From Mycobacteriales bacterium (GTDB lineage: Bacteria; Actinomycetota; Actinomycetes; Mycobacteriales; Pseudonocardiaceae), in the NCBI GenBank assembly GCA_038257875.1, contig JBBSQN010000002.1, forward strand, positions 20,276 through 84,275: DNA of 64,000 nt. The letters run 5' to 3'. The translations under genes and the position numbers were made by a program. Shown here piece after piece: positions 30,307 through 44,749 of this stretch (its first letter is position 1; every line of letters begins with the position of its first letter). The notes under the pieces are model-generated. The model was not told where the DNA came from. It saw only the letters and a program-made list of their open reading frames with translations, and did no database searches.

Positions 30307-30744
30307 TCATTCGTCGAGTGCCGCAGGGTGGTCCCGCAGCGCCGCGAGGAACGATCGCAGGTCTGCCGAGCCCGAGATTGCGACGGCATGGAGGCGCACC
30401 AGGTCGAGCCGCCCGTAGTTGTGGACGAGCAAGTTGCGGAACCCGGCCGCTCGGGCGAGCCGTTCGGCGAGCTCGACCGGGACCACGTCAGCCTCGGCGA
30501 GCTGGCGGAACCCGTCGGCATAGGTGGGTGGGCTGCCCAAGCCGAGCCGCACGCACGACGAGACGGCCAGGTCGAGGACTACCTGGATCGCCTGCCATAG
30601 GTGCAGGACGACTGTGTCCGTCGTCGAGGTCATCGGTTGCAGGTCCGTCGGATCCGTGGGCAGGTGCGCGGCGACGCGGTCGAGGTGGCGCTCAACGGTC
30701 GCGGCCCGTTCGGCGAGCAGCTCGCGGTCGATGCCCGGGTTCAT
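30307..30744 (-). CDS. hepT: HepT-like (DUF86) RNase toxin of a type VII toxin-antitoxin pair
   Basis: 145 aa from ATG 30744, with an Rx4HxY active-site motif (RNLLVHNY). The start overlaps the stop of the upstream nucleotidyltransferase gene (ATGA at 30741-30744). Confidence 0.85.
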   Translation of the reverse strand: MNPGIDRELLAERAATVERHLDRVAAHLPTDPTDLQPMTSTTDTVVLHLWQAIQVVLDLAVSSCVRLGLGSPPTYADGFRQLAEADVVPVELAERLARAAGFRNLLVHNYGRLDLVRLHAVAISGSADLRSFLAALRDHPAALDE

Positions 30745-31127
30745 CCCAACGCCGCCAGCACCTCGTCCTGCGCTGCCCGGATCACCGGTCCCGCGTCGCA
30801 CCAGAACCGTACGGCCTCGATCTGGAACTGCTCGAACTCGCCGGCAGGTTGCTCGATCAGTGGTGCGCCGTCCCGGGCTGTACGGAACCGCAGCAGTGCG
30901 CTCGCCGTGGCGAGGTCGACGACGTCGACTGCGTCAGTACCGAGAACGGTGATGAGCGCGACGACCAGCCCGGTGATGTCGAAGTGGTTGTCGGCCAGGA
31001 ACGCGAGGTCCCAGTCCGAGTGTGGTCCCGCGTCGCCCCGGCCGTGCGAGCCATGCAGTACCAGCAGGCGCAGCCCGGCTACCTCGGGGCGGCCGTGCAG
31101 CTGGGCTGCAAGCTGGTCGGGCGTCAT
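30741..31127 (-). CDS. mntA: MntA-like minimal nucleotidyltransferase antitoxin
   Basis: 128 aa with the GSxxRG...DxD polymerase-beta NTase motif (HGSHGRGDAGPHSDWDLAF). Confidence 0.85.
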   Translation of the reverse strand: MTPDQLAAQLHGRPEVAGLRLLVLHGSHGRGDAGPHSDWDLAFLADNHFDITGLVVALITVLGTDAVDVVDLATASALLRFRTARDGAPLIEQPAGEFEQFQIEAVRFWCDAGPVIRAAQDEVLAALG

Positions 31128-31251: not shown

Positions 31252-31771
31252 TCAGCGGGGCCGTTGCTGGGGGTCGATCCAGGGGGGTGGGGTGAACTCG
31301 GGGAGCCCGTTGTGGAGATGGACCTGCCAGTCGGAGTGGTGGATCAGCCGGTGCTGGATCCGGCAGAGCATGGTGAGGTTGTCGAGCGCGGTCTCACCGC
31401 CGTGTTCTCAGACGATCAGGTGGTGGATCTCGCACCAGGACGGGGCGACCGCAGCCGGGATAGGCACACCCGAGGTCGCGGGCGATGACCGCACGGCGCA
31501 GCCCGTCGGGGATCGTGCGGGTGGCGCGGCCGACGTCGAGGGGCTGACCGGTGCCGTTCATGACGATGGGGACGACGGCTGCGTCGCAGGCCAGCATCCG
31601 CAGCGACTCCGGCGACAGGGTGCCGCCGAAGTCGAGCATCGCGGCCCGGGCCCGGTTCTCCAGGTCTTCGAGCTCGATGAGCACAGTGAGGTGCGGGCGG
31701 CGCCCACCGGTCTCGGGGACGATGCGGTCACTACGGAGTCGTTCACACCCATCGACTCTATGAGCAGGCAA
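31252..31771 (-). pseudogene. Remnant of a DUF222/HNH endonuclease gene (13E12-repeat-type)
   Basis: Only the C-terminal third is present (..LRRAVIARDLGCAYPGCGRP..). The HNH core continues in another frame as CEIHHLIV*EHGGETALDNLTMLCRIQHRLIHHSDWQVHLHNGLPEFTPPPWIDP with an internal stop. The large N-terminal DUF222 part is missing. Confidence 0.75.
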
Positions 31772-33835: not shown

Positions 33836-34252
33836 GTGTCGCTGAAGGTCAGCGAGGTGATCAAACTTGTCGAGGCCGATGGTTCGTACTTGGATCGTGT
33901 CACCGGTAGCCATCGCCAGTTCCGTCATGCTGTCAAGCCAGGCACGACCACGATCGCGGGCAAACCGAGCGACACGTTGCCACCGGGTACCGAGGAGCAT
34001 CCTGAGGCAGGCAGGCATTGGGCTGAGGCAGCGTTGACTGGGTACGCGGTGATCCTGGAGCGGGGTGATGACGGCGGATATGGGGCGTGGAGCCCTGACC
34101 TGCCGGGTTGCGTGGCCGTCAGCGACTCATACGACGAGTGCGTTCGTCTGATGCGTGAGGCGATCTCGTTGCACGTTGACAGCTTGCGCAGGCACGGGGA
34201 GCCGATCCCGCAGCCATCGACCGTCGGGGTCCTGACGATCGGAGCTGCGTGA
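33836..34252 (+). CDS. hicAB: HicA toxin / HicB antitoxin read as one in-frame fusion (apparent 1-nt insertion near the hicA 3' end)
   Basis: Residues 1-52 match HicA/YcfA (VSEVIKLVEADGSYLDRVTGSHRQFRHAVKPGTTTIAGKPSDTLPPGT). Residues about 68-138 match HicB (YAVILERGDDGGYGAWSPDLPGCVAVSDSYDECVRLMREAISLHV). Removing one C at 33990/33991 gives the canonical HicA tail GTRSILRQAGIGLRQR* (stop 34035-34037), overlapping a TTG start at 34034 for HicB. An RBS GGGAGGGAGG lies upstream of 33836. Confidence 0.8.
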   Translation: MSLKVSEVIKLVEADGSYLDRVTGSHRQFRHAVKPGTTTIAGKPSDTLPPGTEEHPEAGRHWAEAALTGYAVILERGDDGGYGAWSPDLPGCVAVSDSYDECVRLMREAISLHVDSLRRHGEPIPQPSTVGVLTIGAA

Positions 34253-35890: not shown

Positions 35891-36199
35891 ATGAGCAACT
35901 ACTTCGATCTGGACGACGAGCTCGACGGCTACCTGTCCTGGGATGACGACGACGAGCCAGCACCTCCCCTGAACCTCGATCCGGGGCAGCGGGAGGCCCT
36001 CGCGGCCGCCGTCACGGCGGGCCTGCAGGAACGCGGGTGCGACCACTCACTACGGGCCGCGCGTGAGTGGGCCGCCGGCGCGGGTGTGGCCTGGCCGGCG
36101 TTGCAGGTGGCGCTCGAGGGCAACGGCGGCTACTGCGACTGTGAGGTCCTACTCAACGTCTTACCGCCCGACGACCCCGAGCCGGACGGCCCCTGCTGA
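35891..36199 (+). CDS. DUF2695-like small protein
   Basis: ATG 35891. The C-terminal part (ERGCDHSLRAAREWAAGAGVAWPALQVALEGNGGYCDCEVLLNV) matches my memory of DUF2695. Confidence 0.6.
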   Translation: MSNYFDLDDELDGYLSWDDDDEPAPPLNLDPGQREALAAAVTAGLQERGCDHSLRAAREWAAGAGVAWPALQVALEGNGGYCDCEVLLNVLPPDDPEPDGPC

Positions 36200-37709
36200 A
36201 CGGATCCCTGACCTCGCACACCTTCTTGTGTCCTCGCGCATGTTGGACGCGCTGATCCAGTCGAAGACCCACTTCGAGACGCTGGTGTTGTTGCAGACCA
36301 CGATGAACACGGGCGGGGTGGCGCCGGTCAGCGCCTCCGCACTGGCCTCCCACTCCTCGAACCGGCGCTGGTAGGCGCCGTAGAGCGCGCGCAGCGCCGT
36401 CTCCAGGACGTCGGGGACCTGCGTCGGGTCCAACGGGGCCTGGCCGCGCCGGCCACCCTTGGGCAGCTCGTCGCGGATCTGGGACCACAGGTCGAGATAG
36501 GTGACGGTGCGCGAGACCTGGTTGTCATCCACCGGCATGCGCGGGATCTTCACGATGCCCGACTCGATCGCGTCGGTCAGCGAGAAGTCGCTGACCGCCC
36601 ACGGGAACAGCGTGCCCTCCTGGTAGCCGGAGCCGCGCAGGAAGAACGGGGTGGCGGACAGGTCGTAGACGGTCTTGACGCCGACCGCCTTCTTGATCGC
36701 CGCCACCCCGGAGAACCAGACGCGGGCCTGCTCGTTGCGCTCGGTGGCCTCCGTGCGGTCGGCGCCGGCCAGTTTCACCTCGTCCGCGCGTCCCCGGTAG
36801 CAGTGGTGCGCCTCGTCGTTGAACACGACGAGCTCCTGGCTGCCGCCGAGGTCGCGGAGCACCCGGGTGACGACCTGGGCATCGGTCTCGGTGAACGGGC
36901 TCGGCCCCCCGCCCGGGTTGAGCACGTCCTTCGTCAGCCGGCTCACACCCCGGGCCGCGGCGAGCTCGCGGGGCAGGAAGGTGTGGTAGTTGGTGATCGC
37001 GATCTGCGCCTGGCCGAGCCCGCCGCGCAGCTCGGGCGGCACGAGGTCGCGCAGCAGGAAGTAGTTGTCGGGGTCCGACGGCAGGAGCACCCGGAGCCGG
37101 TCGCGGATCGTCAGGCCGGGCGTGACGACGAGGAAGCGCTTGGTGTAGGTCTTGCTCTGCGGCGTGGCGATCTTGTTCAGTACCTGCCAGGCGATGAGCA
37201 TGGCCATCACGACCGTCTTGCCGGATCCGGTGGCCATCTTCAGCGCCACCCGGTTGAGCCCGTCGTTGTGCTGGGCGTTGAGGGTGTCGAGGTCGTTGCG
37301 GATCCAGACGTCACCGGTGCGCGGCGCCACCTCGGCGGCGAAGATCGCGGTCTCGGCAGCCTCGCGCTGGCAGAACAGCACCCGGTTGTCGCGCTCGGGG
37401 TCGGCCCAGTACTCCAGCAGTCGCCGTGTCGTCGGGGTGACGTTCGAGTAGCCGGCGTGGCGCCACCGTGTGACGTGCTCCCGGATTCGGTTGATCAACG
37501 GGTTGGGCTGGATCTGGTCGGCGGTCAGCTCGGTCAGCTCCAGCTGCTGCCCGCCCTTGCGCGACTGCGGGACCGGGACGAAGTACTGACGACGGGCGAC
37601 GGCTCGCCGCCACCTGGTCGGTGATGCCGTCGGCGTCGAACTCGAAGTGGCAGGTCGGCTCGTCGTAGGGGCGGTTCAGGATCGGGTTCTCGATCACCGT
37701 GTCCGCCAC
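36161..37709 (-). pseudogene. Type III restriction enzyme Res subunit (SF2 helicase), frameshifted and C-terminally truncated; no Mod gene nearby
   Basis: N-terminus MADTVIENPILNRPYDEPTCHFEFDADGITDQV...RRPSS (frame of ORF 37311..37709) continues as YFVPVPQSRKGGQQLELTELTADQIQPNPLINRIREHV in the frame of ORF 36161..37498; there is one extra nucleotide at about 37586. Helicase motif I MATGSGKT and motif II FNDEAHH are present. Motifs IV-VI and the nuclease domain are absent, and similarity stops near 36235. Confidence 0.8.
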
Positions 37710-37805
37710 CGGGCCCCCTCTCGATCGTCGACAGCCGTCACCCTAGCGGCGGGGCCAAGCGCCACAGGTACGCGCCGCCTTCCCATGACGACGAGTCGGA
37801 CTGGC

Positions 37806-37856
37806 GGATCCTGGAGCGGTGACGGTTCCTCCATGATGTACCCGGCATCCTGGTCA
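37806..37856. repeat. Repeat R1 (copy of the right half of R2)
   Basis: GGATCCTGGAGCGGTGACGGTTCCTCCATGATGTACCCGGCATCCTGGTCA matches 39629-39679 at 45 of 51 positions by my count, in the same orientation. Confidence 0.8.
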
Positions 37857-37984
37857 GCCGCGGGTCGGGGCAGTGGGTAGAGATGGCTGGACATACCGGA
37901 GGGGACTCCGCGCGGCATCGCACGTCGGTGCCGTGACCGTCGCGTGCCGGTGTCCGGTGTCGGCTGGGGTGGCCGGGACTGTCG

Positions 37985-38935
37985 GTGGTCACCCGTAGCG
38001 TCCGTGATGTGCCGTCGAGTCTGCATGAGGTGTTGATCGAGATGTTTCGGCAGCGTCCGTCGCTGGCCGCTGAGCTGCTGGCAGACGGGCTGGGAGTCCA
38101 GCTGCCGGGTTTCGAGCACGCTGAGGTGGAGTCCGGGGAGTTCACCGTGCTGACCCCGACGGAGTATCGGGCGGATGCGGTGGTGGTGTTGTCGGTCGCG
38201 GGGGTGGCGGTGTGGGCGGTGGTGGTCGAGGTCCAGCTGGGTCGGGATCCGGATAAGCGGTGGAGTTGGCCGGTCTACCTGGCCACGCTGCGTGGGCGGT
38301 TCCGCTGTCCGGCGGTGCTGTTGGTGGTCTGCGTCGATGCCGCGACGGCTGCCTGGTACGCCGCTCCGATCGAGTTGGGGCCCGGTGCGGTGGTGACGCC
38401 GATGGTGGTGGGTCCTGATCGGGTGCCGGTGGTGACCGACGTCGAGTACGCGGGTCGGGCTCCGGAGTTGGCGGTGCTCTCGGCCATCGCGCATGGGGGC
38501 GATCCGAACCGGAGCAAGGTGTTGGATGCGCTGCTGGCCGCGCTCGCGACGGTCGATCCTGATCGTGGTGGGCTGTACTGTGACCTGGTGTTGGCTGTGT
38601 TGCCGGAGGCTGCGCAGCGTTACTTGGAGGGGCTCATGGCCACGGGAACGTATGAGTACCGCAGTGACTTCGCACGTCGCTATTTCTTCGAGGGTAGGGA
38701 GGAAGGCGAGGCCGCAGGCAAGGCCGCGGGCAAGGCCGCGGGTAAGGAGGAAGGCATAGCGGAGGGCGAGGCCGCGGGTGAGGCTCGGGCGGTGCTGGCG
38801 GTGCTCGACGCCCGCGGGATCGACGTTCCCCCCGACACCCGCACCCGCATCGCCGAGTGTGCCGACCTCGACCAGCTCGACACCTGGGTGCGTCGCGCGG
38901 TCACCGCCGAGACCATCCACGACCTGTTTGACTAA
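37985..38935 (+). CDS. Rpn/YhgA-like PD-(D/E)XK putative recombination-promoting nuclease / transposase-like protein
   Basis: N-terminus SSLHEVLIEMFRQRPSLAAELL...TPTEYRADAVVVL...VVVEVQL. The C-terminal part has (EGxA/GKAA) repeats and ..RAVLAVLDARGIDVP...RIAECADLDQLDTWVRRAVTAETI.DLF, as I recall for this family. Confidence 0.6.
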   Translation: MVTRSVRDVPSSLHEVLIEMFRQRPSLAAELLADGLGVQLPGFEHAEVESGEFTVLTPTEYRADAVVVLSVAGVAVWAVVVEVQLGRDPDKRWSWPVYLATLRGRFRCPAVLLVVCVDAATAAWYAAPIELGPGAVVTPMVVGPDRVPVVTDVEYAGRAPELAVLSAIAHGGDPNRSKVLDALLAALATVDPDRGGLYCDLVLAVLPEAAQRYLEGLMATGTYEYRSDFARRYFFEGREEGEAAGKAAGKAAGKEEGIAEGEAAGEARAVLAVLDARGIDVPPDTRTRIAECADLDQLDTWVRRAVTAETIHDLFD

Positions 38936-38976
38936 CCCCTCGACCCGTCGGTGCTCTGCGAGTTCCGCCCCGAGCC

Positions 38977-39289
38977 GTGGAGCACGGTCTGGAGGCGTGG
39001 GTGCTGGGTCTGCTGCTGCCCACCCTCCAGACCGAGGGTCTGGTAGCGGCGGGTGGAGCTGGCCGGGGAGAGCGTGCGCGCCTGCTCGGAGGCCGTGGCG
39101 GTGGTCGCGCCAGAATGGCTGCCTGCGGTGATCGACCTACCGGACTGGGGACGTCGCTACGGCGCCTGCGTCGCCACCTGGCGGTTGCCGACCTCGCAGA
39201 CCAAGCGCACCAAGCTCGCGATGGCCTATGGCAACGACGTGCTGGTGCTGCTGCGCGCGGTCCACGTCACCGAGGCCCCAGTGTGGTGA
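38977..39289 (+). pseudogene. Internal fragment of an IS1182/IS5-like transposase gene
   Basis: APEWLPAVIDLPDWGRRYGACVATWRLPTSQTKRTKLAMAYGNDVLVLLRAV resembles the central region of IS1182-type transposases. The adjacent frame carries a degraded ..LQTEGLVAAGG.. piece. No DDE domain and no terminal repeats are present. Confidence 0.45.
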
Positions 39290-39609
39290 CCCGCTGGTTC
39301 TACGTCGAGCTGCACTGCCAGGGCGAACCCACCGAGGACCTCGACGTCATCATGATCGCGCTGGACGTCGAGCCGGGTGAGGCCGACGCCGATGTTGGTG
39401 CGGACCTGGAAGCTGGCACCGTCGAATTCTGTGTGTCGGTGCTGGCCGACAACCCTGGCGAAGCTTTGCACCGGGCGCAGGCGTTCGTTCGATCCGCGCT
39501 GCACGCGGCTGGCACCAGTACACCGGGGTGGGAACGGATCACCGAGCTCGTCGACCGCGGCGAAGCTGTCGCGACCGTCCGTCCTTCCGCGCTGCTTGTC
39601 AGCTCCTGA
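39286..39609 (+). CDS. Hypothetical small protein 'X' (about 107 aa)
   Basis: GTG 39283/39286 overlaps the preceding stop, and the composition looks natural (acidic). Its last codons and stop (GTC AGC TCC TGA) lie inside repeat R2. Confidence 0.35.
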   Translation: MTRWFYVELHCQGEPTEDLDVIMIALDVEPGEADADVGADLEAGTVEFCVSVLADNPGEALHRAQAFVRSALHAAGTSTPGWERITELVDRGEAVATVRPSALLVSS

Positions 39610-39679
39610 ACAGCGGCGCTCCCGGATACGATCCTGGTGCTGTGACGATTCCTCCATGATGTACCCGGCGTCTTGGTCA
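39598..39679. repeat. Repeat R2 (composite: left half matches R3, right half matches R1)
   Basis: Left half 39598-39629, GTCAGCTCCTGAACAGCGGCGCTCCCGGATAC, matches 43387-43418 at 30 of 32 positions. Right half 39630-39679 matches R1. The junction CCCGGATAC/GATCCTGG is itself an imperfect palindrome. Confidence 0.8.
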
Positions 39680-39712
39680 CCGTCACGGCCGGGGCCGTGG
39701 GCTGTTCGTGCC

Positions 39713-42277
39713 TCACCGACGAGGCGTCACGCGTGTACGACTCCGCGCCTGGACTCGGAGGGCGTCGCGGATCTGCGCGTAGATGTCGGCCTGGACTGTC
39801 GTGTGCATTTCGATCGACGCGATGAGTCCGTATCGGATCGCGGAGTTGGGCCAGCCGGTAGCGATGCGGCAGTCGACGTTGACGGCGACGGCGTCGCCGG
39901 ACACGAACGCAAGGGCGGAGTTGCCCTCCAGGATCTCGTGTTGCACCGTACCTCTCCCGACCGCATGGTAATCCGCCTCGCATCGTGTGACCCCGTAGGC
40001 GTTGGCGGGTGGCTCGATCGTCAGCTTGGCCATGCGGTGGCGTTGGGACCGCGGGTTGACCGGTGATATCCACGCCAGTGTGAGCGTCAACCGGCGCCAC
40101 TCCTTTGTCGCGTGCAGCGCAGGCGGCAGTGGCAGGCTGAACTGCTGGCGCTGCTTGTCCATGATGGAACCGGCACCGAGCATAACGGCGCGGGTTCGGG
40201 CTGCGGTAGCGACACGGTGGGGATCGACCCGTCCGTATCCCAGAGCCTTCGTCAGTCCACCCCTGTTGAGCCCGAGCACGTCGGTGAGGGGAGCCGCCAG
40301 GTCTCGCCAGCTGGCGCTGTGCACCAGGAGTGCCTTGGCCAGCACCGGATGGTACTGCGGGTCCGGAAATGGGAAGCTGCTGCCTTCGGCGGTGAGTTCG
40401 TCGAGTACGTCGAAGATTCCGTGGCTCATCCGAGTGGCGAGCGCCGTCGCGTGGCTCGTGCCGACACCGTAGGCCGTGGCGTCAGCGCCGAATGTCCCAG
40501 GGGAGGCGACGAGCAAGCCGGGTCCACGAGCGGTCTGGCGGGCTCGCTGAAGCTCAACGGCGCCACGCGCCCCGGGTAGCGGGCGCTGGAACAGTTGCCG
40601 GCCACCGGGCATCAGCACTTCCGGTTTCACCGACCGCTGGTGTCCGGTACCGGCGGCACTGTAGCTGGCGGGCATCCCGCGCCCGACCGCGTCGAGCACG
40701 GTGTCCGACGGAGGAATCTCCGTCGCGTCGTCGTGAACGGCTCCGACCGTCACTACGTTGACGGCCTCGGCGGGAGACAGGAGCCGTCGGTGCCGTGCTT
40801 CTCCGTGCAGGGTGTGGAGCATCTCCTTCCGCATCCCGTCGACATCGCTCACCGCCTCGACAGAGACCACCGGTGAGCCCGGGTGGTTACCGGCGCTCAC
40901 CAGGATCAACAGGTTGTAGTGATCGGCCAGCCAGTCGAGCAGTGTGGCGAGCGGGCTGACCCGACGCACGAACACCCGTGCCGGGTCACCGAGAGACAGG
41001 TTGACGATGCGCACGCTCGGAGCTACCGCCGGATGCGTGCCGTCGCCTTCGAACATGCGGTGGAAGCAGCGGTGCAGCAGGTCGACGAGCAAGCGGTCCC
41101 GGGCGAGGGTTTCGGTGTCGAAGTACGGGTGTGGCTCCATCACAGGTCGCACGTAAAGCCGGCTGGACAGCGGCCGACCGGGTGACGATAGGTCGCCGTG
41201 ACAGATAAGCGACGCCATGGCTGTGCCGTGGTGCTGCCGAGCGCTGGTGTACCGAGAGGCGTAGTCGTCCGGATCGTCGACGAGGAGCCGGCCGGTGAGT
41301 GTCGTGTGGTTGACCAGCGGCAGGCCGTCAAGCAGCGCTGTCCGCGGCCTGCTCTCCGCGGGCAGCACGGCGTCGGCCGGAGACAGATACTCTGCCGGTT
41401 CGAGACCAGGGAGTCCCATCGGCTGAGCGGGCGCCACGAACGCGATCGTGTCGGAAACGAGCAGCGCGATCGCGTCGGGACCTTCGGCCAGGACTGTGTC
41501 GATCTGGTTGGGCGGCAGGTCCACGAGCAGCGCGTGGTACCGGATGGCCGGGATCACTGCGGAGCTCACGACGGTGCCATGGGCGTCCGCCACCAGTTGC
41601 GTAACCCGGGTCTGCACGGCAGCGCGTTTGCGATCGTCTACTCGAAACCATAGCTCGATCTCCACACGCGACAAGCCCCGGCCGCCCACGACGGCGACCT
41701 CCTCACGCCAGGCCTCCAGCAGCCCGGTCTCGCGGACCCGGTCGGCTGGCCCCCACCGGCGCACTGCCCTGAGCTGCGCGAACGCTGTCCTGAGCGGGGC
41801 CAGTCCGGCAGGGAAGGGCTCGTCTGGGTCGGCTTTCCACCGTGTGAAGAGCCGAACCAGCTCAGCGACCGCGCGTGCGTTCGACATCACCGTGTACAGC
41901 GTTTCCGGGACGGGCTGGCTGGTGGGACCCTCGGCCTTGACGATTGCGAAGTCTGCGTCGGCCTCGGCCTCGTCCTCGGTGAGCTCGGCGAGGAACTCCA
42001 GCCCGTCGATCCCGGCCACCGACCGGTGAAACTCGGTGACCGTGCCTGCCAGATCGAAGACGACGACCAGTTCAGGGTCCTGCTCATCGGTGGTCGCCAT
42101 GGTCCTGGCGCGCTCGGCCGTCAGCGCCTCGCTCAGTGCCATGAACTGGGGCTTTAACCGCTCGCCCTGACGTTGCGCTGACGGTCCGCGCGGTGGGCGA
42201 GGGAACCGTGGAGGTCCAGGAGGAATCGGCTCGCTGATCGGTGGTCCGAACGCCAGCAGTGGACGTGCGTCGGTCAT
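39713..42277 (-). CDS. ietS: S8 subtilase-domain protein with a large uncharacterised N-terminal domain (IetS-like)
   Basis: 854 aa with no signal peptide. Subtilase triad contexts: Asp (TALLDGLP), His (HHGTAMASLICH), oxyanion Asn (LVSAGNHPG) and Ser (GVGTSHATALA). It is translationally coupled to the upstream AAA ATPase gene. Confidence 0.8.
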   Translation of the reverse strand: MTDARPLLAFGPPISEPIPPGPPRFPRPPRGPSAQRQGERLKPQFMALSEALTAERARTMATTDEQDPELVVVFDLAGTVTEFHRSVAGIDGLEFLAELTEDEAEADADFAIVKAEGPTSQPVPETLYTVMSNARAVAELVRLFTRWKADPDEPFPAGLAPLRTAFAQLRAVRRWGPADRVRETGLLEAWREEVAVVGGRGLSRVEIELWFRVDDRKRAAVQTRVTQLVADAHGTVVSSAVIPAIRYHALLVDLPPNQIDTVLAEGPDAIALLVSDTIAFVAPAQPMGLPGLEPAEYLSPADAVLPAESRPRTALLDGLPLVNHTTLTGRLLVDDPDDYASRYTSARQHHGTAMASLICHGDLSSPGRPLSSRLYVRPVMEPHPYFDTETLARDRLLVDLLHRCFHRMFEGDGTHPAVAPSVRIVNLSLGDPARVFVRRVSPLATLLDWLADHYNLLILVSAGNHPGSPVVSVEAVSDVDGMRKEMLHTLHGEARHRRLLSPAEAVNVVTVGAVHDDATEIPPSDTVLDAVGRGMPASYSAAGTGHQRSVKPEVLMPGGRQLFQRPLPGARGAVELQRARQTARGPGLLVASPGTFGADATAYGVGTSHATALATRMSHGIFDVLDELTAEGSSFPFPDPQYHPVLAKALLVHSASWRDLAAPLTDVLGLNRGGLTKALGYGRVDPHRVATAARTRAVMLGAGSIMDKQRQQFSLPLPPALHATKEWRRLTLTLAWISPVNPRSQRHRMAKLTIEPPANAYGVTRCEADYHAVGRGTVQHEILEGNSALAFVSGDAVAVNVDCRIATGWPNSAIRYGLIASIEMHTTVQADIYAQIRDALRVQARSRTRVTPRR

Positions 42278-43236
42278 GAGGTCGGTTGAGCCCTCCGTTG
42301 ACGGAGCCGGCTACACACGATCTCGTTGAGGTCAGCGCTGGGAAGGGCCAGGACGTAGCGTCGCCGGACGTCGTGCGCGAACTGCTCCAGCTCGGCATAG
42401 CTGGCTCCCGGCAGCCGGTCGGCCAGCGTGCGGGGCGCCAGACCCAGGCCGCCACCGAGGTGAGCGACCAACGACTGCAGGAACCGAGTGGCCTCGGCCC
42501 GAGACGGCGGGCTTAGCGTCAGGCGCAGCTGGAAGCGTCGCCACGCGGCACGGTCGAGCAGTTCGCCGTGATTGGTGGCGCACACGACGATGACGTGTGC
42601 AGGCAGTCGGTCGATCTGCAGCAGCAGCGTGGAGACCACGCGTTTGATCTCTCCTGTCTCGTGCGTGTCGGCCCGCTCCTTGGCAAGGGTGTCGAACTCG
42701 TCGAAGAACAGCACGCAGCGGCGGGTGCGGGCGAACTCGAAGACGTGGTCGAGCCGGCCAGCCGTCTCCCCGAGGAAACTTGACACCACACCCTCGTAGC
42801 GCACAACGTAGAGCGGTAGCAGGGTCTCCGCGGCGATGGCCTCGGCGAGGCTAGTTTTGCCGTTGCCCGGCGGGCCGTCGAGCAAGATGCGGTTGCGCGG
42901 TTCGATGCCATGACTGCGCAGCAGCTCAGCTCGATGGTGCTCCTCGATCACCTCCGCGGTCGCGCTGGCTACTTCCTCGCTGAGTTGCACGTCGACGAGC
43001 CGGCGGCGAGGGACGATCTCGTGCAGCAGGTCGGCCATCGGCCGGGCGCGGTCGTCGCGGGTCAGCAGCTCTGTGCTTCCCGCGGTGGTGATCAGCTCCG
43101 ACAGCCGGTCGGCGACGAGATGGTGCTGGTTGCTGCGCTCCTCGGCAATGATCGCTTCCACCAGCACCCGAAAGCGCGCGACGTCCCCGCGCCGCTGCGC
43201 CTCGACGAGGTCGATGACCAGGTCGGACCGCGCCAT
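42274..43236 (-). CDS. ietA: AAA-family ATPase (IetA-like)
   Basis: Start ATG 43236 preceded by GGAGGGG. Walker A GPPGNGKT, Walker B VLFFDEFD, sensor-1 VVCATN and an RRF arginine region. The stop overlaps the start of the S8 gene (42274-42277). The ORF-track start at 43425 reads through repeat R3 and is unlikely. Confidence 0.8.
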   Translation of the reverse strand: MARSDLVIDLVEAQRRGDVARFRVLVEAIIAEERSNQHHLVADRLSELITTAGSTELLTRDDRARPMADLLHEIVPRRRLVDVQLSEEVASATAEVIEEHHRAELLRSHGIEPRNRILLDGPPGNGKTSLAEAIAAETLLPLYVVRYEGVVSSFLGETAGRLDHVFEFARTRRCVLFFDEFDTLAKERADTHETGEIKRVVSTLLLQIDRLPAHVIVVCATNHGELLDRAAWRRFQLRLTLSPPSRAEATRFLQSLVAHLGGGLGLAPRTLADRLPGASYAELEQFAHDVRRRYVLALPSADLNEIVCSRLRQRRAQPTS

Positions 43237-43386
43237 CACCCCTCCATCCCGCCGTAGCTCTTTGGCAACTCTACGGCGCACCCCTGTCAATGACCTGGTG
43301 CCTCGCGGCATTTGATGCTGCCGCCCACCCGTGGAAGATCGGTTCGAGCGGTAGACTGCGATGCTGAACCGGTTGAGCTGGTCGCC

Positions 43387-43418
43387 GTCAGCTCCTGAAC
43401 CGCGACGCTCCCGGATAC
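43387..43418. repeat. Repeat R3 (copy of the left half of R2)
   Basis: GTCAGCTCCTGAACCGCGACGCTCCCGGATAC. The about 70 nt to its left look like a degraded copy of the 3' end of gene X (about 65-70% identity by eye, with indels). Confidence 0.75.
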
Positions 43419-43521
43419 TGTTCACGCAGGTCGCGGACCTTCAGTGGAGCAACGGATCACTCAACGGCTCTGTGAGCTGCCGTAGGGGTCGTGTACACCA
43501 CGTGGAAGGAGCTGGGACGAC

Positions 43522-43573: not shown

Positions 43574-43798
43574 TCAGGTGAGGTCGTCGAACTTGCCTGC
43601 CTTGACGCCGGTGATCCAGGCGTCCAGCTCGGCGCGGGTGAACAGGACCGCGCCCTGGTCGGGGTGGTTGCTGTTGCGCACGGCGACCCGGCCGTCTCGT
43701 AGCGGGGCGACCTCGACGCAGTCCGGGACGTCCGCGCCGCCGCCGCCGGAGAAGCTGCTCTTGCGCCACCGGGCGTGGGCCAGTGCGTCGTCGGTCAT
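43574..43798 (-). CDS. DUF397 domain protein
   Basis: 74 aa with WRKSSFSGGGG..CVEVA.....VAVRNS..P....L.FT..E..AWI..VKAG.FD, the typical DUF397 signature. Confidence 0.88.
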   Translation of the reverse strand: MTDDALAHARWRKSSFSGGGGADVPDCVEVAPLRDGRVAVRNSNHPDQGAVLFTRAELDAWITGVKAGKFDDLT

Positions 43799-43819
43799 CC
43801 CGCGACCTCCTTCAAGGGG

Positions 43820-44749
43820 TCATCCGTAGCCGTTCGCGGCATCGGTGATCAGCTTCACCGAGTCGGCCGGGGACAGGGACTGCTCGGTGAGGATACCGAA
43901 GCGCAACGTGTAGGTCCGTACGCGCTCCCGATCTTCGAGGTAGACCGCGCGGCCCGATCCCTCGGCGTAGCCGACGTCCGGCATGGGATCGGGCAGCGTC
44001 AGGATCGAGAACGGTCCCTCCAGCGCGGGGCTGGCTCCCACGGACTTCGGCAGCACCTGGATCGTGACGTGCGGGGCGTCCGCCGCCTCGACGAGCCGGC
44101 GGAGCTGGTTGCGCATCACCAGCGGCGACCCGACCGGTCGTTCGAGCACCCCGGCGTCCAGGATGGCGTGCAGCCGGGGTGGTGTGGCGCGGGTGAGGAG
44201 CTGCTGGCGGGTGAGGCGGGCGGCGACCCGCCGTTCGACCTCGCCCTCGGCGAGGTCCGGGTGGATGCCGCTGATCAGCGCGCGGGCGTACTCGGCGGTC
44301 TGGAGCAGCCCTGGCACCAGCAGCGTCTCGAACTGGCGGCGCGCCACCAGCGCGGCCTCCCACTCGAGCATCTCGTGGAAGTTCCGCGGGACGTTCTTGC
44401 GGATGTCGACCATCCAGCCGCGCTCGTTCGCGGTGCTGGCGAGCTCGAGCAGCCAGTCGCGGAGGTCCTGGTCGGTCACGCCGTAGACATCGAGCATCTG
44501 CTCCACCTCGCGCGGCTTGATGCCGTGCAGGCGGTTCTCGATGCGGGAGAGCTTGGGGCGCGACCACCTGCCCGGCCCTTTGCGCAGCTCGGCGACGACC
44601 TGGTCATGGGTGAGATCGGCCTGTTCGCGGAGCTGGCGAAGCTTCTCGGTGAGCTGCCACCGCCGGACCGTCGCGCTGACAGGGCCGCTGTCCTGGGTCA
44701 CGATCAACCTCCGCACTGACGAGTGCTGACGCACGCGTCCGTACGCCAT
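43820..44749 (-). CDS. XRE-family HTH regulator with a DUF5753-type C-terminal domain (partner of DUF397)
   Basis: HTH LRQLREQADLTHDQVVAEL..S.SKLSRIENG, followed by the C-terminal domain that commonly accompanies DUF397 genes in actinomycetes. Confidence 0.85.
   Translation of the reverse strand: MAYGRVRQHSSVRRLIVTQDSGPVSATVRRWQLTEKLRQLREQADLTHDQVVAELRKGPGRWSRPKLSRIENRLHGIKPREVEQMLDVYGVTDQDLRDWLLELASTANERGWMVDIRKNVPRNFHEMLEWEAALVARRQFETLLVPGLLQTAEYARALISGIHPDLAEGEVERRVAARLTRQQLLTRATPPRLHAILDAGVLERPVGSPLVMRNQLRRLVEAADAPHVTIQVLPKSVGASPALEGPFSILTLPDPMPDVGYAEGSGRAVYLEDRERVRTYTLRFGILTEQSLSPADSVKLITDAANGYG

Follow-up and report, generated by a model that had tools for sequence, protein, structure and literature searches.

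In Streptomyces turgidiscabies, the island PAISt has three palindromic direct repeats that part it into modules; it is located at the 3' end of a gene and has been fixed by erosion (PMC4057263). It has also been documented that integrative elements and cis-mobilizable elements (CIMEs) accrete in tandem (PMC5704250), and the concept of the mobile insertion cassette (MIC) is cited in PMC4337579. Here, we describe a locus that resembles these systems in a stretch of Pseudonocardia chromosome of 64 kb, hereafter the window, to whose positions all coordinates refer. In a 5.6-kb interval of accessory DNA of this window, two short repeats, A and B (R-right and R-left in the original prediction made on this DNA), which lie at the sites R1 (A), R2 (B with A) and R3 (B), split the interval into two head-to-tail modules with matching ends, one of which carries the anti-phage defence pair IetAS. 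We tentatively read the locus, with somewhat less than even confidence, as the relic of two non-autonomous modules with common ends that were stacked by a trans-acting enzyme.

Geometry of the Repeats

The interval is limited by a restriction-endonuclease remnant at the left and by a DUF397/XRE pair at the right, and consists, in this order, of A1, an Rpn-like gene, a fragment of an IS1182-type insertion sequence (IS), gene X, B2 with A2, IetS, IetA and B3 (Table 1). Module 1 (37807-39629) and module 2 (39630-43418, carrying IetS-IetA) are both of the form A...B, and their cargo is unlike in content and orientation. In the output of the repeat finder, the two copies of A agree at 45 of 50 positions (37807-37856 and 39630-39679); a local alignment with three gaps extends them to 37877 and 39701, respectively (62 of 73 columns). 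The copies of B, at 39598-39629 and 43387-43418, agree at 30 of 32 positions, with abrupt edges on both sides. Local alignment scores were 85 for A and 54 for B, against shuffle maxima of 34 and 29: the repeats are real, far beyond chance. All the copies share one orientation, and R2 is an exact B|A junction, B2 ending at 39629 and A2 starting at 39630 with zero spacing, with R1 and R3 as the outer junctions; the same-orientation repeats and the composite R2 of the original prediction were, in this respect, confirmed. By reading the sequence, the left edge of A1 is sharp (37806|37807), and nothing B-like lies to its left.

We suggest that two non-autonomous cargo modules, sharing a left end A of ~50-70 nucleotides (nt) and a right end B of 32 nt, may have come to lie head to tail, in which case the B|A of R2 would be the junction expected of a circular form or of a tandem dimer. 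Module 1 would have carried X, and the Rpn-like multicopy gene and the IS1182 element would have been inserted afterwards. In favour of stacked modules we counted the direct duplication of A and B, the exact abutment of B2 and A2, the inverted termini and the core shared at 8/9 positions, as well as the differing cargo, the mobility of IetAS, the lower G+C content at third codon positions (GC3) and the occurrence of an X homologue near DUF397/DUF5753 genes without IetAS.

The exact B|A abutment is also accounted for by the main rival, a tandem duplication of A-IetS-IetA-...-(Rpn, IS)-X/B followed by reciprocal loss, in which copy 1 lost IetAS and copy 2 lost Rpn-IS-X, with no mobile element or dedicated enzyme. 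We hold this history to be somewhat less likely than stacked modules. It would explain the shared orientation and the sharp inner edges, the restriction of A and B to this locus and the lack of a recombinase, and why the pairs have diverged to a comparable degree (10% for A, 6% for B). On the other hand, three events are needed, the duplication must escape homologous collapse, and there is no residual overlap, either between 37878-37912 and 43237-43386 or between the 3' region of X and the sequence before B3.

The copies of the repeats have diverged by 6-10% (B 6%, A 10%), compared with ~0.1-0.2% between strains; thus, the events that gave rise to them long predate the sampled population. In the reading as stacked modules, the structure would by now be fixed and eroding, as suggested by this difference between the copies and by a degraded palindrome at R2.

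A third copy of A or B was sought in the 64-kb window with degenerate patterns allowing ≤3 mismatches, and none was found (0 expected by chance). No tRNA and no Rfam family was detected, the three sites folded no better than shuffled sequences (z-scores from −1.5 to +2.0), and no promoter- or terminator-like site coincided with the repeats. An origin of the repeats from a tRNA or a structured RNA was rejected, since there was no tRNA, no Rfam match and no significant fold. These results also make it hardly probable that the repeats are cis-regulatory or structural elements (operators, terminators or a small RNA), or a motif of the repetitive extragenic palindromic (REP) type, unrelated to the cargo boundaries. 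All copies are indeed intergenic or at a gene end, and A2 has, by reading the sequence, a short hairpin beside the IetS stop codon; however, 50-72 nt at ~90% identity far exceed the length of an operator, and each repeat occurs only twice in 64 kb and is absent from a further 41 kb of DNA of the same genome. The original prediction had named a dispersed REP-like motif as what would overturn the repeats as cargo boundaries, and the lack of dispersed copies in these two sets of sequences leaves the boundaries standing.

Other origins were considered for A and rejected. As a coding sequence, its substitutions fit no single reading frame, and its sole long open reading frame (ORF) is antisense to the Rpn-like gene; as a long target duplication of the IS1182-type element, it should flank the IS remnant, which the repeats do not.

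Inverted Termini and a Shared Core

The outer termini of the modules, GGATCCTGGAGCG and GTATCCGGGAGCG, are inverted relative to each other at 11 of 13 positions (figure for module 1). With ±3 nt of slack, 0.23% of random position pairs in the window match as well (empirical P≈0.002), and the weak end-to-end inversion first noticed by the original prediction is therefore present. Setting the start of A1 against the end of B gives a near-palindrome, CGCTCCCGGAT-ACG-ATCCTGGAGCG, with the shape that a recombinase or transposase site might have; in the present R2, which has the A2 version, this palindrome is eroded to 8/13. We infer that an enzyme encoded elsewhere may have recognised these inverted-repeat termini and joined or integrated the modules at one site; it would have been either a site-specific recombinase, of the kind at work in CIME accretion, or a transposase, of the kind that moves MICs. 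Duplication with reciprocal loss leaves the 11/13 similarity between the start of A and the end of B to chance.

The motif CGGAT[C/A]CTG spans the outer boundaries of R1 (37805-37813) and R3 (43412-43420), which agree at 8 of 9 positions (empirical P≈0.04), and R2 (39623-39636) reads CGGATAC·GATCCTG, where the 5 nt in the middle of this core occur twice. Judged from the letters alone, the core geometry at R1, R2 and R3 looks like the expected product of 5-nt staggered cuts at two similar sites. Under duplication and loss, GATAC|GATCC could have arisen when two breaks with a 5-nt stagger, at the similar sequences CGGATCCTG and CGGATACTG, were filled in and their ends joined. As for the sharing of attachment (att) cores, A is common to R1 and R2 and B to R2 and R3, and R1 and R3 share only the 9-nt core.

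The window shows no enrichment of the 13-nt terminal motif (9 matches with ≤1 mismatch, against 3.9±2.2 expected), and three of the nine matches are the repeat sites themselves. An exact copy of the 13-nt start of A (GATCCTGGAGCGG) is found at 34051-34063, inside a HicB-like ORF, and is followed, after a 5-nt insertion, by TGACGG, which also matches A; we judged it a chance occurrence. An Xer/dif-like site was rejected because no dif-like arms are visible by eye in A or B.

Gene X and the Sequence Upstream of B3

X belongs to a conserved, narrowly distributed family with 28 homologues, among whose source names is Pseudonocardiales, and its C-terminus fits the family consensus ...ATVRPSELLVxS*. 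As had been reported, the left repeat includes the end of the gene: the first 12 nt of B are the last three codons of X and its stop. The original prediction had further seen here a replacement end brought in by an integrating element; since the C-terminus is the conserved one of the family, it is native and not a replacement. The AlphaFold2 (AF2) model predicts a ferredoxin-like fold, for which only generic beta-alpha-beta matches were obtained, none of them informative.

The ~70 nt before R3 had been taken for a degraded second copy of the X 3' end, and this claim did not survive. In the 148 nt between the IetA start and B3 no X-like DNA was detected (local score 11.5, shuffle mean 11.6). 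An alignment anchored on B, in which the sequence upstream of B3 was compared with the X 3' end, was equalled or beaten by 30% of random genomic segments (P≈0.3). Moreover, a hidden Markov model (HMM) of the X family, run on six-frame peptides, found X with E=6e-59 and missed the peptide ending at the B3 stop. With no similarity to X in the DNA or in the HMM tests, B3 is a clean 32-nt copy with nothing detectable attached.

These results bear on the integration originally proposed, in which A2-IetS-IetA used a 32-bp att core (B2 as attL, B3 as attR) to enter X at its 3' end, the integrase was later lost and the A pair is an unrelated duplication. Part of this model stands: B covers the 3' end of X and directly borders the IetAS operon, and removal of the segment leaves a natural convergent pair, X -> <- DUF397, with a hairpin, as in the loci of a metagenome-assembled genome (MAG) of Pseudonocardiales (L016-L018). 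There is also an actinomycete precedent for integration into the 3' end of a protein gene (PMC4057263). However, the model covers only the B pair, and neither the A pair nor the B|A abutment: A1, with no B-like sequence to its left, is unexplained. In addition, the decayed X copy that motivated it is undetectable, and there is no integrase in the window and no empty site in the nine samples described below. We consider a single integration quite unlikely.

X homologues with 68-77% amino acid identity occur in three settings: after a kdp operon, in a serine-recombinase element and in the Pseudonocardiales MAG, where the X homologue is followed by a small ORF and then by DUF397 and DUF5753 genes, with no IetAS between; the DUF397 protein of the MAG is only 46% identical to the window copy. 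No A- or B-like sequence was found at the X-homologue loci, including downstream of X. Sister samples of this MAG differ directly upstream of the X homologue (an ORF of 169-188 amino acids versus AbiEii), which is a real cargo polymorphism beside X in another lineage. In the serine-recombinase setting (loci L019-L022) the X homologue is the last operon gene inside an integrative element, which also has a large serine recombinase, an HTH_17 excisionase-like gene, DUF2637 and a D5_N primase. X itself has a weak match to a Gordonia phage protein (36% amino acid identity, E=1e-3). X is thus loosely tied to mobile elements, by the integrative-element setting and by the phage match.

The IetAS Pair and Its Relatives

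IetA and IetS are adjacent in one operon with a 4-nt overlap, and both are recognised by PADLOC (Table 1), in agreement with the identity first assigned to them. IetA is 78-93% identical across Pseudonocardia, Blastococcus, Mycobacterium and Cellulomonas, and the two closest IetAS loci (92% amino acid identity) stand in unrelated contexts, DUF5710-IetAS-GmrSD and PHP-IetAS-Rieske. By this identity across genera and these unrelated neighbourhoods, IetAS is demonstrably horizontally mobile. The DNA homology of the two loci with the window is confined to 39720-43248, the span of both coding sequences and a further 12 nt. This comparison gives no support for A or B as flanks native to IetAS; it is a weak test at 77% nucleotide identity, a level at which the relatives cannot tell whether A and B travel with the operon.

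The horizontal transfer of IetAS also suits another explanation, in which A and B were conserved flanks of a hotspot holding either X-type or IetAS-type cargo, and a circularised A-IetAS-B donor fragment recombined through B (or A) into an A-X-B recipient. One crossover yields the observed order, and the region is a junkyard of accessory and defence genes (HepT/MntA, the restriction-endonuclease remnant, IS fragments). Against this, about 32 bp, the length of B, is near the minimum for RecA-dependent recombination, no one-allele strain was seen among the samples, and circularisation exactly at the start of A and the end of B is unexplained. Such a recombination between alleles appears unlikely.

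The Rpn-like Unit and the Insertion Sequences

The Rpn-like gene has at least two paralogues in the same genome, with 93% and 84% amino acid identity (loci L038, 9672-10918, and L041, 9857-10826). At the DNA level they match the window with 90-92% identity over 37913-38938 exactly, with sharp edges, so that the homology begins ~96-145 nt ahead of the start codon and ends 3 nt after the stop; the paralogues share with each other an extra ~47 nt upstream, unlike the window sequence. A1 stands 35 nt outside this unit. An origin of A as the sequence upstream of the Rpn-like gene was, therefore, rejected, also because the homology with the paralogues begins at 37913 and the sequence upstream of them is unlike A. 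The unit, like the IS1182 fragment, is best seen as having entered module 1 at a later time, and it may be a gene-sized selfish element.

The family of the Rpn-like protein has more than 1000 homologues in Pseudonocardiaceae and relatives and no Pfam family, with D56, E74, Q76 and K83 invariant. Its name, which comes from the original prediction, found no support: no Pfam or NCBIfam match was obtained even at E≤10, and the profile of the Rpn/YhgA-like (Transposase_31) family did not recognise the protein. A fold search with the AF2 model (predicted local distance difference test, pLDDT, of 81) returned weak matches to PD-(D/E)XK nucleases (E≥0.08), which hint at such a fold. There is a very slight probability that A and B are the cis-acting ends of an undescribed family of small, enzyme-less cassettes in Pseudonocardiaceae, shuttling defence operons such as IetAS between hotspots of the chromosome, stacking end to end and mobilised in trans, conceivably by the multicopy Rpn-like PD-(D/E)XK nuclease of module 1 cutting CGGATMCTG with a 5-nt stagger.

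The IS remnant was correctly recognised at the outset: ORF78 is 52-60% identical in amino acids to annotated IS1182-family transposases (tblastn). Two IS3-family insertions, at 38163 in the Rpn-like gene and at 39347 in X, are polymorphic among strains that are 99.8-100% identical. Four Logan assemblies, independent of one another, share a break at 38885, within the 3' end of the Rpn-like gene, and this fits the near-identical 3' sequence shared by the Rpn-like paralogues.

Strain Samples, Database Searches and the Weight of the Evidence

Nine samples with the locus were found by exact-protein look-up in ENA, Logan and JGI metagenome assemblies, together with the MAG GCA_051004515.1. These samples, the searches for copies and enzymes, and some features of the locus itself supply the points that weigh against stacked modules. 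The contigs are 99.8-100% identical to the window, with the same gene order and with R2 and R3 identical base for base, and the IS3-family insertions are the sole structural differences among them. No empty site, alternative cargo or junction polymorphism was seen in the nine samples; the original prediction had expected empty sites or different cargo in relatives and had named the lack of polymorphism at the junctions as refuting, and what comes nearest is the distant X-DUF397/DUF5753 locus without IetAS. Further copies of the 32-bp and 50-bp repeats, which it had proposed to look for, did not turn up beyond the window either. Neither A nor B is present in further contigs of this genome (41 kb); a search of one genome per species for an exact 21-mer of A gave one chance hit in Bacteroidota; a B pattern with 21 specified bases gave 8 hits in JGI metagenomes, all in one unrelated low-GC gene; and viral contigs, plasmids and phages (blastn/tblastn for plasmids) contained nothing relevant for A or B. 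The metagenome scan for B missed a JGI contig, Ga0136617_10001673, that holds B2 and B3; same-species sequence is apparently absent or masked there, and the same-species negatives are, therefore, weak.

As regards the enzyme, the original prediction had noticed no integrase in the 3.8-kb segment, and this holds more widely: no integrase, resolvase or transposase was recognised in the segment or among the window ORFs tested with Pfam and NCBIfam (~45 ORFs), and tblastn of the window, with recombinases of the serine and tyrosine types and transposases of the IS110 and ISL3 families as queries, likewise gave none. At the locus, the inverted ends of module 2 match at only 9/13 positions (P≈0.09), R2 has a 5-nt doubling (GATAC·GATCC) in place of a single core, and no target-site duplication is present, the flanks ...GGACTGGCG and TGTTCACGC sharing nothing by reading. 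Of the cassette bounded by terminal inverted repeats (TIRs) that had been proposed as an alternative, the ends match at 11/13 in module 1 and at 9/13 in module 2, and the target-site duplication is missing. B starts within native X codons, which forces the assumption that X was part of the ancestral element and which duplication with reciprocal loss explains. Finally, the closest IetAS relatives show no comparable flanking repeats, a comparison of little power at 77% nucleotide identity.

Since no second copy, no enzyme and no strain polymorphism came to light, the repeats look like old fixed scars, and the locus is most likely a fixed, eroding recombination scar in a defence/accessory junkyard. 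The original observation is, from the sequence, sound apart from the decayed copy; a cassette boundary is reasonable as history, and its activity is unproven. Likewise, of the modular swap site that had been suggested, the repeats exactly at the cargo boundaries, the mobility of IetAS and a plausible history remain, but nothing shows current mobility.

If the ends were functional, they would represent a minimal vehicle, free of any integrase of its own, for moving a defence operon in actinomycetes, and they would explain the 78-93% protein identity of IetAS across distant actinobacterial genera. If they were only scars of duplication and loss, the locus would be a tidy but ordinary case of gene-order shuffling in a defence island. 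Either way, the repeats are exact handles for polymerase chain reaction (PCR) and BLAST.

Genomic Surroundings

GC3 is 0.78-0.84 for the genes within the block, compared with 0.92-0.95 in the flanking restriction-endonuclease, DUF397 and XRE genes; a few ordinary genes of the window are equally low, and the contrast is modest support only. The accessory region extends from about 30 kb to about 47 kb in the coordinates of the window.

The restriction endonuclease of the left flank matches positions 1-51 and 70-484 of the 970 of the BPTD_3080-family profile, in two ORFs (37311-37709 and 36161-37498), with a frameshift near 37311-37498, and is probably a pseudogene. Further to the left, an MntA-family antitoxin gene lies within 30307-31127, beside a small ORF that is a candidate only for a HepT toxin partner, and a DUF222/HNH-like remnant at 31270-31720 has ~75% nucleotide identity to a gene beside one of the Rpn-like paralogues (locus L041).

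Table 1. Features of the interval and of its flanks, with positions in the window.
Feature	Position	Strand	Evidence
BPTD_3080-family restriction endonuclease, N-terminal half, frameshifted	36161-37709	-	NCBIfam NF046055; GC3 0.95
A1 (R1), left-end repeat of module 1	37807-37877	+	45/50 core, 62/73 columns vs A2
Rpn-like multicopy unit, A1 not included	37913-38938	+	90-92% nucleotide identity to two same-genome paralogous loci
Rpn-like gene, 308 amino acids	38009-38935	+	No Pfam match; weak PD-(D/E)XK fold matches
IS1182-family transposase remnant (ORF78 39053-39289)	38940-39289	+	tblastn 52-60% amino acid identity
Gene X, 107 amino acids, predicted ferredoxin-like fold	39286-39609	+	28 homologues; AF2 pLDDT 81.5
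B2, right-end repeat of module 1 (final three codons of X with its stop, then 20 nt)	39598-39629	+	30/32 vs B3
A2, left-end repeat of module 2, abutting B2; 11 nt short of the IetS stop codon	39630-39701	+	
IetS, S8 peptidase, 854 amino acids	39713-42277	-	PADLOC PDLC04233 937 bits; Pfam Peptidase_S8
IetA, AAA ATPase, 320 amino acids	42274-43236	-	PADLOC PDLC04232 471 bits
B3 (R3), right-end repeat of module 2, about 150 nt upstream of IetA start	43387-43418	+	30/32 vs B2
DUF397 (43574-43798) + XRE/DUF5753 (43820-44701) pair, right flank	43574-44701	-	Pfam; strain-contig gene calls; GC3 0.92-0.93

Comparison with Known Systems

With integron cassettes and pdif (Xer) modules the locus shares cargo stacked at recombination sites and an enzyme outside the module. 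It differs from integrons in having no attC-like folded site and no IntI, from pdif modules in that, by reading the sequence, the repeats have no dif-like XerC/XerD arms, and from both in that each module has two different ends and not one site type. Tandem duplication with random loss predicts the A...B|A...B geometry exactly, together with unique repeats and no enzyme, but it does not predict the inverted termini, and no leftover homology is detectable.

MICs are closer, with passenger genes between short inverted termini and no transposase inside, and the abutted ends of the locus are like the junction of an IS circle or tandem dimer. Unlike MICs, the locus lacks a target-site duplication, its TIR is short (11/13) and poorer in module 2, neither the window nor the fetched loci nor the collections yielded other copies, and no cognate IS with these ends is known.

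From CIME accretion the locus differs in that no integrase was found in 64 kb and in the tiny size of the modules (1.8 and 3.8 kb). In the known accretion cases all three att sites share a clear identity segment, whereas R1 and R3 share only 8/9 nt here; unlike in CIME accretion and PAISt, no excision, empty site or second locus is known. On the other hand, the modules lack a recombinase of their own, as CIMEs do, and the 3' end of a gene is duplicated, as in CIMEs, through B (the last 3 codons and stop of X recur at 43387-43418). As in CIME accretion and PAISt (PMC4057263; PMC5704250), three sites in the same orientation divide the island into two modules, and a right end joined to a left end makes up the middle site. 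One of the repeats reaches into a protein gene at its 3' end, the core is nearly a palindrome, and erosion can fix the structure. The structure is a fresh instance of an already known kind.

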